Source of the DNA: a virus
Direction: 5' to 3' (one strand)
DNA: 64,000 nucleotides
IMG/VR virus record: IMGVR_UViG_3300035633_000651
Coordinates: 1-64,000 of that record
Position 1 is the first letter of the stretch; the number at the start of each line of letters is the position of its first letter. The notes under the pieces are model-generated. The model searched no databases, had not been told where the DNA came from, and saw only the letters and a list, made by a program, of their open reading frames with translations. Both the position numbers and the translations under genes were made by a program. Below are positions 11,730-58,905 of this stretch, piece by piece.

Positions 11730-12602
11730 CCCATGGAAAACTGGACCATTGTCCGCTGCGGAGAGCAGTGGCTCATCGGCATCAAAGGCGCGTCCTCGGA
11801 CGAGGACCTCGGGTACTTCAACCTGACCGACGTCTGGGGCATCTGGCACCAAGTCGGCGTGCAGCCCGGCCCGCAAGGACCTGGCTCCTTCAACATCATG
11901 CAGACCCCCGCGCTGGTCATTCCCCTGCTGAACTCGGGGAAGGGGGTCGAGTCGATGTGGGTCCGCCCCACCATCGAGTTCACGCCCGACGAGGCTGACC
12001 AAAAACAGTGGCGGGAGGGCATCGAGAACGCGCGGCGGGCGACCATCGAGCAGCGGACAGGTCTGAAGCTGGCCTCGTCCATGCCTCCGGGGAAGTCATG
12101 ACCCGGGTCCTGACGCTCTCAGACCCGCTGTACTGCTTCGCGGCCGACTCTGCACCAGGAGAGGTGCTGCCTTCGACCATCCGCTCAGGCCACCGTCCAG
12201 TGCCTCTGAACGGCGTTTTCGAGTGCTGCCACGTCGACACGAAGGACAACCCAAACGGGGTCTGGGTGAAGGTCTGGAACGTGTACCACACGACGATCGA
12301 CCAGCTGACGGACATCATGGCCCAGGACATCGGCTACGAGGACCTGGCAGACCTCTACGGGGACCTAGGCGTCTCCAAGGACGAGCCTGTCACCGTCCTC
12401 GGGCTGGAGCGAGCGGCGGCGCTGCCCCTGACTCACACGACCGGCCAGGAGCCCACGCCCCCGAGTATGCGCGCTCTCGAAGGCGAAGTGCATCCGGCCG
12501 ACCGAATGCCCTGACAGAAATTACACCGAACTGTGTAATTTCTGTCCCCGTGAAGGGCAATCCTATCTGAAATTGGCCTAGCGGCTGCGCTACCCTCGTG
12601 AT

Positions 12603-25755: not shown

Positions 25756-25793
25756 CTTGACAAATTCCGTGGCTTGTCGTATTCGTCCCGCTC

Positions 25794-26153
25794 ATGGGAA
25801 ATCGCGCCAACGTCGAGCTGGTCTTCAACGACAACCAGTCCATCTTCATCTACGCCCACTGGGAAGGAAGTCGCATGGTGAACGTCCTGCACGACTCGCT
25901 GTCCAAGCGAGCCCGCTGGACGGACGACGAGTACCTGGCCCGCATCATCACGGGCGACATGATCAACAAGCTCGGCTACGCTGACGAGACCTCAGGCATG
26001 GGGTTGTCGCCGTCCCCGGTCGACGGTCGCATCGTCGCGCGGGTGCTGCTCGAAGAGCAACGCCTCACCGACGTCGAACTAGACGAGCACGGCATTTGGA
26101 GTGGCTCCTTCGAGGAGTTCGTATCTCGCCCCCGGCCGGAGAACGAGGGCTGA
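25794..26153 (+). CDS. Hypothetical phage protein
   Basis: MGNRA...IYAHWEG; follows TTGACA promoter at 25757. Confidence 0.7.
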   Translation: MGNRANVELVFNDNQSIFIYAHWEGSRMVNVLHDSLSKRARWTDDEYLARIITGDMINKLGYADETSGMGLSPSPVDGRIVARVLLEEQRLTDVELDEHGIWSGSFEEFVSRPRPENEG

Positions 26154-37451: not shown

Positions 37452-37480
37452 TTGACAAGACCCGGTGACTGTCATATAGT
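37452..37480 (+). promoter_or_regulatory. Palindromic leaderless promoter
   Basis: TTGACA-AGAC-CCGG-TGAC-TGTCA-TATAGT-N6-ATG(37487). Confidence 0.85.
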
Positions 37481-37486
37481 CGCTGC

Positions 37487-37879
37487 ATGACGACGACTGA
37501 CCTCATCCGCACCAAGCACGCCCGCCTGCTCGACCTGAGCACGAGCTTCCGGACCAACGTCTGGTCGACCAAGCTCGACGAGCTGCGTAAGGCGCCCGAA
37601 GACGCCCGCCGCGCCGAGATCGCCCAGCTCCTCCCCGAGTTGGCCAAGCTCGTGAACGACCAGGGCGGTGTCGAGGCGACCCAGCACATTGGGTCTGACA
37701 GCTACGCCGTGCGCGTGAACCGCATGACGCCCTCGGGCAAGACGGTCTTCGTGACCGCGCGGGGCGAGCGCGAGCAGAAGTACACCTGGCGCGAGAAGGG
37801 CGGCTTCCGCTCCGTGGGCGGCGGTTCCTCGTCACTCGGCCTCGGGTACGCCGAGGACTACCTCGACCCCTCCTTCTGA
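37487..37879 (+). CDS. Hypothetical leaderless early protein
   Basis: ATG follows the -10 after a 6-nt gap; ends YLDPSF. Confidence 0.75.
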   Translation: MTTTDLIRTKHARLLDLSTSFRTNVWSTKLDELRKAPEDARRAEIAQLLPELAKLVNDQGGVEATQHIGSDSYAVRVNRMTPSGKTVFVTARGEREQKYTWREKGGFRSVGGGSSSLGLGYAEDYLDPSF

Positions 37880-38297: not shown

Positions 38298-38306
38298 TTC
38301 GTCCAC

Positions 38307-38355
38307 GTGGCGGGCTGTTGGGGCCGTCAGGGAGGTTCGACTCCTCCCCGCCGCA
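38307..38355 (+). ncRNA. Minimal tRNA-like element (acceptor stem plus T arm)
   Basis: GTGGCGG/CCGCCGC-A; GGAGG-TTCGACT-CCTCC; only 17 nt between. Confidence 0.5.
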
Positions 38356-38407
38356 TTCGGGATCCGGTCAGCCCGGTCAGAGAGCTGCAGACTCTCCCCG
38401 AAACCAA

Positions 38408-38482
38408 GCGTCGGTAGCTCAGTGGTAGAGCGCCGTGGACTAAGGCCCCCGGAGGTCGCAGGTTCAAACCCTGCCCGACGCA
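38408..38482 (+). tRNA. tRNA-like RNA with abnormal 20-nt anticodon arm
   Basis: Canonical acceptor, D and T arms; arm CCGTGGACTAAGGCCCCCGG. Confidence 0.7.
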
Positions 38483-38529
38483 AACCAACCCCTTGACGGT
38501 CGGCCGACATCTGCCGAACGCTGTCGGGC

Positions 38530-38709
38530 GTGGCTCCCAAGCTCTGGCCTCACCAGCAGGCCGCCGTTGACGCGGTCAAGAAGACCCTTCGCCGTGCCGA
38601 CAGGTGCTGCGTGTTCTCTGCAACCGGCACCGGCAAGACCCGCACTGAACTCGAAGTCATGTCGCCGCGCAATCGGCGCAAGGTCATCGTCTTGGATGCC
38701 CAGCAATAA
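38530..38709 (+). pseudogene. Truncated SF2 helicase N-terminus (59 aa)
   Basis: LWPHQQAAVDA (Q motif), ATGTGKT (Walker A), then stop. Confidence 0.7.
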
Positions 38710-38760
38710 ATTCTGAAAGTTCTGAGTTCTGACACTTGACAACCACCCAACGTTGTCAGG

Positions 38761-40770
38761 ATGATACTCGAAGTCGGGTGGGAACCCGGCGCGTGGAGCT
38801 GCTGCGTAGGCAGGGAGCGGAAGCGCAAGGTCTACGGACCGAAGCAGATGGATATGATTGAATGCGTTTCGAGTGCGGCTGACCCGGCGTCTGAGGACGG
38901 ACGCCGGGTCAGCTACCTACCTTGCACTGCCTGCGGCACGAAGCAGCACCCCAAGCGACTGCGTAACGACGTGTGCCAGCAGTGCCGGACCCGTACAGGA
39001 GGACAGGTCGTCCGGGCCTACCGATACCGACTGTATCCGACACCCGCACAAGCCGCGCAGCTCGCTCGGGCGGGCGAGATGTCACGCCAGCTCTGGAATT
39101 ACCTCGTGCGAGATGCGGTCGACGTCGCGCGCACGGAGTCGCGCGTGGCGCGCAAGCACTACGCCCGATGGCACGCACGTCACCCCGACGTGGAAAAGAT
39201 GCCGAAAAAGGTCAAGTCTTCGATCTCTGAGCGGGCGAAGAAGGTATGCATCCGTGTGCATGGGCACGACTGGCGGGAGCCTCTGCGGAACCTGCCGCCT
39301 ATGGGCGAGATCACCTCGGCGCTGAGGGCACAGCGTCCCTGGTGGGGGCTGCCTGGCAACATGTCCAACGCGGTGCTTCAAACTGCCCAAGACGCGGTCA
39401 AGAAGAGCCGCCCACCGCGCATGAAGCGTCGAGGTCGGTTCGGGGAGCTGACTCTGCCTGGTCCTACGAACGGTGCGAAGGACTTGGTGCTCGACGAGCG
39501 CGACCCGCGGACTGCCTGGCTCACGGTGCCGAACGCACACCTCAAACTCAAAAAAGGTAAGCGTGTAGAGGACCAGGCGGTCACTGGGAACGTGCGGGCG
39601 AAGCGGCATCGTCCGCGCGTAGAGGACCAGGCGGTCGCCGGGAACGTGCGAGTGCTGCTGCATCGTCCGCTACCGCCTGATATCATTCACGACGAGGGCA
39701 AGCCGGCGGTGCGTCGTGTGGCGTTGGTGCACGAGGCGGGGGCTTGGTACGTCAGCGTGACGTACGAGTATGTCGCGCCTGGACGCGATGTCGCGCCCGA
39801 CCGCGCGTTGATTTGCGGCGTCGACCGCAACATGGCCACTAATCTGTGCACCTTCAGCTGTCCCGTCGGGCCTGTCGTGTACCAGGACGGTACACAGCCG
39901 GAGTCGCTCAGCGCCCCCTGGACGGACCCCTATATGGTGCCGTACCTTGTCTACACCGCAGAAGAGCGGAAGGCGGCGGCGCGCCGTGACGCGCACGCTC
40001 GCCGCATCGCGCGTCTTGTTGCGCGCACGCACCTGGACAAGGCGGCACGCGCGAGCGCGATCAACACCCACAAGTGGGGCCGCCGGTCGCGCGGCGAAGA
40101 CGACCCCGGGCAGCCGAAGTCGAAGCGTTGGGCCGCATCCGACAAAGCTGCAACCAAAGCTGCCGACCGTGGCGCGCGCAACCGCAAAGAAGTTCGGCGC
40201 CTGGTGGCCGACCGGTTGACGTACCACTGCCGCATCGTAGTCTTCGAGGCGCTCGACGCGCGGCAAATGATGGCGCGGACTCCAGGTGCGGGCGCAGGCG
40301 GGCGTGGACGGAACCGGAAGCAGGCGACCCAAGGCTGGGGTGACCTGCGCCTGCAGACGGAGTCTTCTGCCCAATTGCGTGACACGTTGGTCATCGAGGT
40401 GCCGTCTGCTTACACGTCGCAGACGTGCGCTGAGTGCGGGCACCCCGACTCGGCGTCGCGGCAGGACCAAGCCACATACGTGTGCACCGCCTGCGGACAC
40501 ACCGACAACGCGGACCGCAACGCCGCTCGGAACATCGAGCACCGCGGAGCGGCACTGCTCTCTGCGCCTATCGAGCTGGTGCGCGCCGCGCAAAGCCCGA
40601 AGAAAACCAAGACGGGGGCGGCCAAGGACCTGCAGACGCTGCTGTACGCTTGCGAGCGGCTCAGTGCCGCCGAAAAGGCCGACCTCGCTCGCGCCCCAAA
40701 GTGGGCGCAATCCTGGGCACTTAGCTACTTGAAGCGCGTCGCAGCTGACCACAAGGCCCGCAGCAACTAG
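38761..40770 (+). CDS. TnpB-derived type V (Cas12-like) RNA-guided nuclease; true start probably 38848/38854 or 38971
   Basis: RAYRYRLYPT; RuvC-I GVD, RuvC-II VFE, TSQTCxxCG..CxxCG Zn ribbon, RuvC-III NADRNAARNI; adjacent array. Confidence 0.9.
   Translation: MILEVGWEPGAWSCCVGRERKRKVYGPKQMDMIECVSSAADPASEDGRRVSYLPCTACGTKQHPKRLRNDVCQQCRTRTGGQVVRAYRYRLYPTPAQAAQLARAGEMSRQLWNYLVRDAVDVARTESRVARKHYARWHARHPDVEKMPKKVKSSISERAKKVCIRVHGHDWREPLRNLPPMGEITSALRAQRPWWGLPGNMSNAVLQTAQDAVKKSRPPRMKRRGRFGELTLPGPTNGAKDLVLDERDPRTAWLTVPNAHLKLKKGKRVEDQAVTGNVRAKRHRPRVEDQAVAGNVRVLLHRPLPPDIIHDEGKPAVRRVALVHEAGAWYVSVTYEYVAPGRDVAPDRALICGVDRNMATNLCTFSCPVGPVVYQDGTQPESLSAPWTDPYMVPYLVYTAEERKAAARRDAHARRIARLVARTHLDKAARASAINTHKWGRRSRGEDDPGQPKSKRWAASDKAATKAADRGARNRKEVRRLVADRLTYHCRIVVFEALDARQMMARTPGAGAGGRGRNRKQATQGWGDLRLQTESSAQLRDTLVIEVPSAYTSQTCAECGHPDSASRQDQATYVCTACGHTDNADRNAARNIEHRGAALLSAPIELVRAAQSPKKTKTGAAKDLQTLLYACERLSAAEKADLARAPKWAQSWALSYLKRVAADHKARSN
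38845..38913 (+). ncRNA. Anti-repeat plus 14-bp hairpin (3' part of candidate tracrRNA)
   Basis: 26/29 match to reverse complement of CRISPR repeat; stem 38878-38891/38900-38913. Confidence 0.75.
39562..39669 (+). repeat. 54-bp in-frame tandem duplication inside the nuclease
   Basis: RVEDQAVTGNVRAKRHRP / RVEDQAVAGNVRVLLHRP. Confidence 0.9.
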
Positions 40771-40827
40771 GCCCGCGCGCAATCGAAGAAAAAAGACCCA
40801 TGACATCCAACACTTACACCCCCGCCT

Positions 40828-41309
40828 CCCGAAACGCACTCACTCATATCCATCTGTTGCCACATCGGAAGGATAGTACGGACAGCCTGCCCTCCGGGGC
40901 CGCCCGAAACGCACTCACTCATATCCATCTGTTGCCACAAACCGTCGCCAAAGAACTTCTTCATCCGGGGCGCGAAGACCCGAAACGCACTAACTCATGT
41001 CCATCTGTTGCCACCACCCTGCGAGCACCAGAGCCGCCCGGCGCGGGTCCGTCCCGAAACGCACTCGCTCATATCCATCTGTTGCCACAAGACAGCGCGG
41101 GCGACACGCTTTCACATACGACCCACCCCGAAACGCACTCACTCATATCCATCTGTTGCCACCCAATAGTGGAGCGCGCTCCACGTGAGGTCCTCGACCC
41201 CGAAACGCACTCACTCATGTCCATCTGTTGCCACCCCGTCCAGGCTAACGGAGCTGAGATGCTCCGAATCGCCCCCGAAACGCCCTCAGTCGGGTCTATC
41301 TGGAGCCAC
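40828..41309 (+). CRISPR. CRISPR array, 7 x 36-nt repeats and 6 spacers (39, 40, 38, 38, 36, 39 nt)
   Basis: CCCGAAACGCACTCACTCATATCCATCTGTTGCCAC at 40828, 40903, 40979, 41053, 41127, 41199; degenerate copy at 41274. Confidence 0.97.
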
Positions 41310-41727
41310 TCGTAGTGCGCCGGCGGGACTTCATCGCCCTCGGGCTGGAGTTCTGCCGGCCGCGAGAGGCTGTCCTGATGTGGGTCGGAGGGCTTCAGGG
41401 CTGGCGCCCTCGCAGGACCCTGACCGACGGCGACCTCATCCGGCCGGCCGGCGTCCTCCGCGCACGCGTCGTGACGGCCCACGGCTGGCACGGCTTCTTG
41501 AACGGCTGCTTGACCCACCATGAGGACTGGGGGCAATACTGCATGCGGACGTTTCGCGGGGACGGCTGGGTGATGCCGTCCACGTCGAAGGCGGGCCGCG
41601 CGACCATCGACGTGGTCGGGGACGTGCAGAACGCGCATCGGTTCCCTGGACGCGTTCGCTATCTGCGGGTGCCCAAGAAGGAGTGGACCTCCTTCCAGTG
41701 CGCTCCCTACGCCGTGAGGATTCTTCG

Positions 41728-42309
41728 ATGACTGGCAACGTCTGGTTCACGTCCGACATCCACTTCGGACACAAGCGGATCCTGGAGCTGACCGACCGAG
41801 GCAAGCGGTGGAGCCACGTCGAGGACATGGACGAGGACCTCATCCGCACGTTCAACGAGCTGGTCCGTCCCGGCGACCGGGTCTACCACCTGGGCGACTT
41901 CAGCTTCGCCTCGAATGAGCGGACGAAGAAGATCAAGCGGCGTCTGATGGGCGAGTGGCACTGGGTGCTCGGGAACCACGACAACAGCAAGGACAGGGAC
42001 CTCTACGCCATGTTCCAGTGGGTGGGCGACTATCGTCGTGTCAAGCTCGACGCCCAGGCGATCGTCCTCTTCCACTACCCCATCATGAGCTGGCACGGGA
42101 TGCACAAAGGCGCCTGGCACCTGCACGGGCACTGCCACGGAAACCTCACCGAGGCCTGCCGTGCCTGCGGGACGCCGTTCAAGGCGCTGCGCCTCGACGT
42201 CGGCATCGACAATCATCCCTACGACTTCCGCCCCTTCAGCTACGAGGAAGTTCGCCAGCACATGCGAACGGTGGGCACGTCGACCACCACGGCGCCTAGG
42301 CTCGGGTGA
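41728..42309 (+). CDS. Phage metallophosphoesterase
   Basis: FTSDIHFGH, HLGD, GNHD, HYP, HGHCH, DVGID. Confidence 0.9.
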   Translation: MTGNVWFTSDIHFGHKRILELTDRGKRWSHVEDMDEDLIRTFNELVRPGDRVYHLGDFSFASNERTKKIKRRLMGEWHWVLGNHDNSKDRDLYAMFQWVGDYRRVKLDAQAIVLFHYPIMSWHGMHKGAWHLHGHCHGNLTEACRACGTPFKALRLDVGIDNHPYDFRPFSYEEVRQHMRTVGTSTTTAPRLG

Positions 42310-57574: not shown

Positions 57575-57603
57575 TTGACAAGAGCCGGGGAGTGTCATAA
57601 GGT
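57575..57603 (+). promoter_or_regulatory. Palindromic leaderless promoter
   Basis: TTGACA-AGAG-CCGG-GGAG-TGTCA-TAAGGT-N6-ATG. Confidence 0.85.
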
Positions 57604-57609
57604 CTGGGC

Positions 57610-58905
57610 ATGGCGACGATCGAACTCACCATCAACACCAACTACGTTCCGTCCTGGGGCACCTGGGAAGCCGTCCGCGAGATCCTGCAGAACGCGAAGG
57701 ACGCCGACGACCTGGGTCACAAGATGGAAGTCAAGTACCATCCCAAGACCGAGCGCCTCGTCATCAAGAGCGAGGGCGCAGACCTGACGCGCGAGACACT
57801 TCTCCTCGGCGCCACCAGCAAGGCCGGCCGGTCGGACCAGCGCGGGCAGTTCGGCGAGGGCTACAAGCTCGCTCTTCTCGTCCTGGCGCGTCAGGGCGCC
57901 GAAGTCACCATTCACACGCCGCGGGAGACCTGGGTCCCTACGCTCACGGACTCGACCACCTTCGACGGTGCCGAAGTCCTCACCATCCGCACGCGGCCTC
58001 GGAAGTCCCGAACCCAATCGGTGGAGTTCGTCGTCAAAGGGATCACCGAGGCCGCGTGGCGGTCTGTCCAGGCCAACTGCCTGTTCCTGCAGACCGCCAT
58101 GCCGCACATCAAGACGCACGCGGGCTCGGTCCTCACGGACCCCGAGCTGGCCAATAAGCTCTTCGTGGGCGGCCTGTTCGTTTCGGACCTGCCAGACCGC
58201 TACCGCTACGGCTACGACCTCCAGAACGTGCACCTGGACCGTGACCGCAAGATGGCCGAGCCCTGGTCCCTGCGCTGGGAGATCAGCAAGGTGCTCAATG
58301 AGGCGGTCGCCGATGACCAGCTCGACCTCGACAAGGTCCTACGCATGGACTCGGGCGAGATGAAGGCCATGGCGGAGAACACCGAGTACATCAAGCAGGT
58401 GGCCGCCAAGGTCGTGCAGGAGTTCGAGGCCGAGAACGGCGAGGACGCCGTGGCCGTCGACGACATGGCTCAGGCGCAGCGCGCGGGACAGCACGGTATG
58501 AAGGCCGTCGTCGTCAGCCGAGAGAAGCGCCTCGTCATCGAGGCCTGCAAGGGCAAGCTCGACGACCGGATCCAGGACCGCGACACCGACACCAAGGTGC
58601 TCGTTCAGCCGGACGACCTCGGCGCCGACGAGTGTGCCAACCTCGTCTGGGCCACCGAGCTGGTGGAAGTGTTCGCAGGACTCACGGAGGCGGTGCAGGT
58701 CGTCGAGTTCTACGGGGAGCGCATCGACGGCTGCACGGACGGCAAGACCATTCGCCTGGCCCGCCGCATCCTCACGAACCGGGCTCAGCTCATCGCGACC
58801 TTCGTCCATGAGGTGGCCCACCGTCACGGTCCGGACGGTTCTGCGGAGCATCGGGCGGCCATCGAAGACATCTTCGCGAAGATCGTGGTAGGACAGGCGG
58901 CATGA
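57610..58905 (+). CDS. GHKL-type ATPase with C-terminal HExxH
   Basis: REILQNAKDA, GQFGEGYK, HEVAH. Confidence 0.75.
   Translation: MATIELTINTNYVPSWGTWEAVREILQNAKDADDLGHKMEVKYHPKTERLVIKSEGADLTRETLLLGATSKAGRSDQRGQFGEGYKLALLVLARQGAEVTIHTPRETWVPTLTDSTTFDGAEVLTIRTRPRKSRTQSVEFVVKGITEAAWRSVQANCLFLQTAMPHIKTHAGSVLTDPELANKLFVGGLFVSDLPDRYRYGYDLQNVHLDRDRKMAEPWSLRWEISKVLNEAVADDQLDLDKVLRMDSGEMKAMAENTEYIKQVAAKVVQEFEAENGEDAVAVDDMAQAQRAGQHGMKAVVVSREKRLVIEACKGKLDDRIQDRDTDTKVLVQPDDLGADECANLVWATELVEVFAGLTEAVQVVEFYGERIDGCTDGKTIRLARRILTNRAQLIATFVHEVAHRHGPDGSAEHRAAIEDIFAKIVVGQAA

Follow-up and report, generated by a model that had tools for sequence, protein, structure and literature searches.

How does a miniature CRISPR nuclease carried by a phage obtain the second RNA that its guide appears to require? 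The question is raised by the virus record IMGVR_UViG_3300035633_000651 of IMG/VR, of which we analysed the first 64 kb (hereafter, the window) out of 109,677 bp. Here, the gene for a TnpB-derived type V effector (38848..40770, + strand) precedes a CRISPR array (40828..41310, +) whose repeat hardly folds by itself (-0.1 kcal/mol for the + strand, -2.6 kcal/mol for the - strand); among type V systems, a repeat of this kind implies that a partner RNA is needed. The one candidate for this partner lies at the 5' end of the effector gene itself and consists of an anti-repeat (38845..38873, +) and a G+C-rich hairpin (38878..38913, +). The stretch 38845-38913 very probably belongs to a tracrRNA (trans-activating CRISPR RNA). 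On balance, we favour the fuller reading that it provides the anti-repeat and terminal hairpin of a tracrRNA that serves this rare phage-borne nuclease and is shared with the 5' end of the nuclease mRNA.

Which strand of the array gives rise to the CRISPR RNA (crRNA)? The array comprises seven repeats of 36-37 nucleotides and six unique spacers of 35-39 nucleotides. All genes between 33.2 and 42.3 kb, which flank the nuclease-array cassette, read in the + direction, and of the repeats the seventh, at the right-hand end, is degenerate (71%). Co-directional genes and a degenerate repeat at the far end of the array indicate that the crRNA is a + strand RNA. The first-pass annotation of this DNA, made from the sequence alone, had reached the same orientation from the terminal repeat, and both the gene directions and the promoter-like site described below bear it out. 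Stop codon and first repeat are separated by 57 bp of A+T-richer sequence (40771..40827, +) without a promoter-like site, so that the array is probably co-transcribed with the nuclease gene. Neither the phage's own genome nor GenBank phages contain a match to any of the six spacers.

Scanning the window for the repeat with at most three mismatches, we met the segment 38845-38873, which differs at three positions from the reverse complement of repeat bases 1-29; this is the 26/29 match that the first-pass annotation had pointed out, and it is the sole match outside the six good repeats of the array, where 0 were expected from 100 shuffles. Two further pairs extend the complementarity to 38843. 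When both strands of the whole 109,677-bp genome were scanned for RNA duplexes, no site outside the array paired more strongly with the repeat than this segment, which reached -42 kcal/mol (mean -15.6, standard deviation 4.7). In a sliding co-fold along the whole locus, the crRNA bound at -26 to -39 kcal/mol only to segments containing 38845-38873, and at -4 to -17 kcal/mol elsewhere. Binding was just -4 to -11 kcal/mol in the 3' tail of the open reading frame (ORF) and in the gap before the array, and no rival anti-repeat was found in 40500-40827; a tracrRNA in the 3' tail, like that of Cas12n, was ruled out by this lack of complementarity. The good repeats vary at three positions, in four occurrences. 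At two of these positions (three occurrences), an A is replaced by a G opposite a U of the anti-repeat, so that, with the pairing worked out by hand, a G-U pair is kept. Such variants favour a tracrRNA, although they lend it only mild support.

Four bases 3' of the anti-repeat begins the hairpin, which encodes residues 40-51 of the product counted from ATG 38761 (the numbering used throughout). Its perfect 14-bp stem was already described in the first-pass annotation; with wobble (U-G, G-C) the stem reaches 16 bp, and it closes on an AGGA loop for a free energy of -33.9 kcal/mol. Perfect stems of at least 14 bp occur twice in the entire genome and in none of 12 shuffles; the other one, at 12513-12546, is A+T-rich and intergenic. 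Rfam holds no family for the anti-repeat and hairpin stretch. The hairpin is likely to be the 3' end of a short RNA or an attenuator. Could the whole element instead be an inert relic, either an orphan inverted copy of the repeat or the left-end hairpin of an ancestral IS200/IS605-type element that is functionless today? IS605-family ends have subterminal hairpins, and the truncated helicase fragment adjoining the cassette gives it the look of an insertion. However, decay would not be expected to leave a 26/29 match and an unbroken 14-bp stem, the variant repeats retain pairing through G-U, and the gene is separated from the only promoter-like site by precisely this element. We therefore give a relic hardly any credence.

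The promoter-like site (TTGACA-18 nucleotides-GATGAT, 38736..38765, +) is located 80 bp upstream of the anti-repeat, on the strand needed, and would place the transcription start at about 38772-38777. No other promoter-like site was found on either strand in 38300-41500, with 0.2 expected. A tracrRNA encoded on the opposite strand was considered and ruled out, as that strand shows neither a promoter-like site nor a repeat-sense copy. The RNA spanning 38772-38925 folds at -78 kcal/mol, with a z-score of -5.1 relative to 200 shuffles. Co-folding with the crRNA, a check suggested in the first-pass annotation, gave three 5' stem-loops (the predicted tracrRNA scaffold, 38772..38844, +), a duplex of about 30 bp with a net energy of -37 kcal/mol, and the terminal hairpin. 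Within the scaffold, GUGG occupies 38778-38781 (bases 7-10 counted from the predicted start) and might form a pseudoknot with the CCAC at the 3' end of the repeat. The analogy is with Cas12p, the phage 'Cas12 hacker', in which the final four bases of the repeat form a short pseudoknot with tracrRNA bases 7-10; in the present RNA such pairing amounts to no more than a four-base coincidence.

The in-frame ATG codons at 38848 and 38854 both lie inside the anti-repeat, as had been noted before. In the predicted folds, both AUGs are in a loop in the free RNA and paired in the crRNA duplex. This suggests another explanation, in which the segment would be a cis-regulatory leader with no guide role: crRNA or pre-crRNA would pair at the start codons and repress translation, while the nuclease would use the crRNA alone or an unrecognised helper RNA. 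For Cas9, guide-type RNAs are known to autoregulate cas genes. On the other hand, the repeat has no hairpin of the sort that would suit a type V effector working with crRNA only, the genome contains no other anti-repeat, and the combination of promoter, 5' scaffold and strong 3' hairpin fits a stand-alone small RNA rather than an occlusion site. As a full account of the element, cis-regulation is thus improbable; as a second function beside the tracrRNA role, it is compatible with the reading that we favour.

What sort of nuclease would such an RNA serve? The frame is open from 38740 to 40770 (+), the TGA within TTGACA closing the reading frame upstream, and its product (P0001) counts 669 amino acids from ATG 38761. 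P0001 matches the Pfam families HTH_OrfB_IS605 (residues 85-117) and Cas12f1-like_TNB and scores 122.8 bits with the NCBIfam TnpB family NF040570, for which the cut-off is 100. The RuvC residues D355, E496 and D585 are intact, as is the TNB zinc finger, and all are invariant in an alignment of 103 relatives. Foldseek placed the AlphaFold model of the effector closest to Cas12f and TnpB structures (E 6e-14).

Close relatives are few. An exhaustive HMMER search of 1.84 billion representatives returned only three full-length matches, P0004 (45%), P0006 and P0057 (approximately 30% each), giving a family of four members found among some 15 billion predicted proteins. All four share a C-terminal tail that is conserved as protein sequence. 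Among solved structures, a profile built from the four members matches RdCas12n (PDB 9J09) best, nearly over its full length (E 2.7e-27); as a lone query P0001 does not reach 9J09, and the hits of the NCBIfam scan include no Cas12n family model. Other searches produced more distant proteins only: ordinary TnpBs matching the C-terminal half in a genome scan, insertion sequence (IS)-type TnpBs in GenBank phages, generic TnpB clusters in the ESM Atlas, and the window's own protein plus weak matches in word-indexed protein searches. When P0001, P0004, P0057, P0006 and the repeat were run against viral contigs, nothing matched, and two metagenome scans were equally empty.

Two peculiarities of the gene deserve mention. 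An in-frame tandem duplication of 54 bp (39561-39668, +; 85% identical) encodes two 18-residue copies of RVEDQAV.GNVR...HRP, one of which is missing from P0004, in a region modelled with a confidence score (pLDDT) below 50. In addition, the public gene call (P0002, 563 amino acids; 39079-40770, +) starts at M107, behind the Shine-Dalgarno-like GGGCGGGCGAG. We rejected ATG 39079 as the start since it removes the conserved HTH_OrfB domain and first WED strand; for the same reason, surveys based on annotation would miss the effector and its N-terminal features.

Does the nuclease really begin inside the anti-repeat? The main clue is a putative N-terminal zinc ribbon, encoded at 38923..38985 (+), in which residues 55-75 read CTAC-x13-CQQC (C55, C58, C72 and C75), directly ahead of the TnpB-type RAYRYRLYPT strand. 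P0057 and P0006 have four cysteines at the same place, N-terminal to the YRYRL strand. A motif [MV]-[DE]-x-G-x-C-x-x-C before the second cysteine pair is common to P0004, P0057 and P0006: the called start of P0004 (MEEGLCRGC) aligns with MDLGMCQQC in P0057 and VDLGQCQTC in P0006, where the motif is internal. The P0004 call is thus probably too short, like the database call of the phage gene. To judge from this alignment, the ribbon appears to be conserved at the N-terminus of the nuclease family. In the AlphaFold2 model (103 sequences), residues 51-80 form short strands at pLDDT 65-75, and residues 1-44 fall below 50 and are predicted to be disordered.

Ahead of the ribbon, the only canonical in-frame starts are ATG 38848, 38854 and 38761; the frame contains no ATG, GTG or TTG between 38857 and 38970. 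The next canonical start is GTG 38971 (residue 71), between the CxxC pairs C55/C58 and C72/C75, and the claim of the first-pass annotation that any downstream start would cut the zinc finger therefore holds. A protein that includes the ribbon has to be translated from 38848, 38854 or 38761, which would make the anti-repeat and hairpin coding. ATG 38761 overlaps the -10-like hexamer GATGAT, so it would be missing from a transcript initiated at the promoter-like site. The translation start is thus most likely ATG 38848 or 38854, with ATG 38761 and GTG 38971 as alternatives, and the anti-repeat probably overlaps the nuclease coding sequence. Frame 0 is the best of the three frames in each N-terminal segment. 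G+C content at third codon positions (GC3) is 0.60 in codons 30-54 and 0.81 in codons 55-70, as if the former had been shaped by the RNA.

The alternative that bears most directly on this overlap accepts a genuine tracrRNA, encoded by an ordinary separate gene upstream, with translation from GTG 38971 and with the open frame and the first CxxC pair due to chance. TnpB-type proteins usually start a few residues before the YRYRLYPT strand, which lies here at residue 87; most TnpB relatives start 4-10 residues before YRYRL, and GTG 38971, lying some five codons ahead of where many TnpBs begin, fits this habit. The low GC3 and rare codons of codons 30-54 and the disorder of residues 1-44 would also be explained. 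By contrast, a separate gene has difficulty in accounting for the recurrence of the four-cysteine ribbon in P0057 and P0006, for the internal position in both of the motif found at the first methionine of P0004, and for residues 51-70 being modelled at pLDDT 65-75. Estimated from base composition, the chance that 70 codons stay open and also place a CxxC at a suitable distance is about 0.004. GTG 38971 has no Shine-Dalgarno match (-1.1 kcal/mol), and gene callers are unreliable here, as seen from the database call at M107 that cuts HTH_OrfB. We consider a separate tracrRNA gene unlikely.

Several observations nevertheless weigh against a tracrRNA shared with the start of the nuclease gene. The called start of P0004 aligns with residue 67, and a short form lacking the first cysteine pair is conceivable. 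In P0057 and P0006 the called starts are only 4-6 residues before the first cysteine, which makes the 25-residue leader peculiar to this phage. By codon usage, the first 54 codons score intermediate between coding and non-coding distributions, and the N-terminal segments taken alone show weak BLAST similarity. No candidate start has a Shine-Dalgarno match, ATG 38848 reaching -3.2 kcal/mol against a background of -2.9. The hairpin is followed by no U tract, making termination there uncertain, and all of this concerns a single locus in one genome. The proposal of the first-pass annotation, a tracrRNA candidate overlapping the start region of its own nuclease, divides into two parts: a + strand tracrRNA fits all the computed features, and its overlap with the coding sequence is probable, a start at GTG 38971 remaining the alternative.

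How could one RNA end serve two purposes? Transcription starting near 38772 from the promoter-like site at 38736-38765 would yield an RNA whose first 100-140 nucleotides form the tracrRNA, with three 5' stem-loops, the 29-nucleotide anti-repeat and the very stable hairpin. The same 5' end would belong to the nuclease mRNA, its first AUGs (38848 and 38854) lying inside the anti-repeat, and the twenty or so codons after them, hairpin included, would encode a disordered leader before the zinc ribbon. Transcripts ending or cut at the hairpin or duplex would become tracrRNA, and those reading through would become nuclease mRNA and probably also pre-crRNA. Once the crRNA repeat pairs with the anti-repeat, the resulting double strand of about 30 bp, of the RNase III type, would serve to mature the guide and at the same time mask or remove the start codon; guide maturation would thereby compete with nuclease translation. 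TnpB and Cas12n excise the guide scaffold from their own mRNA (bioRxiv 10.64898/2026.03.27.714800), and by analogy the phage nuclease mRNA might be cut likewise, from the opposite (5') end. We put forward only tentatively, as somewhat less than an even prospect, this single transcription unit in which the 5' end of the message doubles as tracrRNA and in which pairing, followed by cleavage by RNase III or the effector, converts the message into a guide component and stops translation. Processing of the mRNA 5' end and occlusion of the start codon, offered as alternatives in the first-pass annotation, may both be true.

Is there a precedent for this layout? The closest is Cas12n (type V-N, formerly V-U4/c2c9), whose tracrRNA lies inside its own ORF and mRNA, in an unstructured, dispensable C-terminal tail (PMC12216341; PMC11641405; bioRxiv 10.64898/2026.03.27.714800). 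Cas12n resembles the phage system in having a miniature TnpB-like effector and a tracrRNA within the effector's mRNA and ORF, over an unstructured and probably dispensable peptide. The order of the guide is also alike, with stem-loops followed by an anti-repeat: guides of both Cas12n and Cas12f comprise three or four stem-loops, after which comes the anti-repeat (bioRxiv 10.64898/2026.03.27.714800). However, the Cas12n tracrRNA follows the last RuvC residue, in the 3' tail, whereas the phage candidate is at the 5' end, over the likely start codon. The phage anti-repeat is moreover long (29 nucleotides), pairing with the 5' three quarters of the repeat, and the N-terminal zinc ribbon of the phage nuclease has not been described for Cas12n. 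The protospacer adjacent motif of Cas12n is 5'-AAN; for the phage spacers no protospacer was found. Since the 3'-tail tracrRNA that defines Cas12n is absent here, we do not file the locus as Cas12n and describe it as a variant of the tracrRNA-dependent miniature type V systems; its layout would be a 5' mirror image of that of TnpB and Cas12n.

TnpB of IS200/IS605 elements, with its omega RNA, and the TranC intermediates share with the phage locus a guide scaffold that overlaps the nuclease ORF, and the phage protein passes the TnpB family cut-off. The omega RNA, however, overlaps the 3' end of the gene and runs into a single guide, whereas the phage locus has a split tracrRNA and crRNA, a seven-repeat array and a 5' scaffold. 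Neither a TnpA nor transposon ends came to light around the phage gene, though no search was aimed at them. In Cas12f and Cas12p, as predicted for the phage RNA, the stem-loops come first and the anti-repeat last, and the phage effector fold is closest to those of Cas12f and TnpB; tracrRNAs of compact systems, however, are looked for between the effector gene and the array, where that of Cas12f was located, and not over the start codon (bioRxiv 10.64898/2026.03.27.714800). Full-text literature searches of a limited library brought up no report of a type V tracrRNA over the effector start codon.

The genomic surroundings suggest how the cassette came to its present place. Immediately ahead of the promoter-like site ends a 70-residue N-terminal fragment of a ResIII-type helicase (38497..38709, +), truncated to the motif I region (Pfam ResIII, E 1.1e-6, profile positions 3-58 of 164). 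The ORF that follows the array (41315-41731) has no Pfam match, and the remainder of the helicase is thus absent there. This truncated neighbour suggests that the cas12-array module was inserted at this site, apparently with flanking sequence being lost. In codon usage, too, the cassette resembles the phage less (0.13 versus 0.37 bits per codon).

The window has 64% G+C and 33 tRNA genes, and there are other features of note in it and in the genome beyond. A tRNA-like gene (38408-38482, +; Rfam tRNA, 57.7 bits) is given by ARAGORN an 8-base anticodon loop with the four-base anticodon 'taag' and no assigned amino acid. Adjoining it is a weak match to Y RNA-like YrlA (38331-38431, +; E 0.12). 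A 544-residue phage protein encoded at genome positions 67075-68709 (+; L082:1076-2710) matches PHROG 850, 'RNA-binding protein' (E 3.6e-72); if this protein is Ro60-like, the two could be parts of a phage Ro/Y-RNA module. Several genes are preceded by TGTC-(A/G)TA..GT-N6-ATG without a Shine-Dalgarno sequence (37462-37489, 25769-25796 and 57585-57612, +). Such starts resemble leaderless mRNAs of the actinobacterial type, and many other starts of this phage also have no Shine-Dalgarno match.

The locus defines a complete and compact system, with a nuclease of about 640 amino acids, a predicted tracrRNA of about 100-140 nucleotides and a 36-nucleotide repeat, and its nuclease carries an N-terminal zinc ribbon not described before. 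That the guide scaffolds of TnpB and Cas12n are embedded in the nuclease gene's 3' end has been taken as a vestige of their transposon origin. A tracrRNA placed over the 5' end and start codon would, if true, mean that the overlap of guide RNA and protein can arise again elsewhere in the gene. It would also tie guide maturation to nuclease translation, in a simple self-limiting circuit that balances nuclease against guide and would suit a phage armed with a minimal CRISPR weapon.

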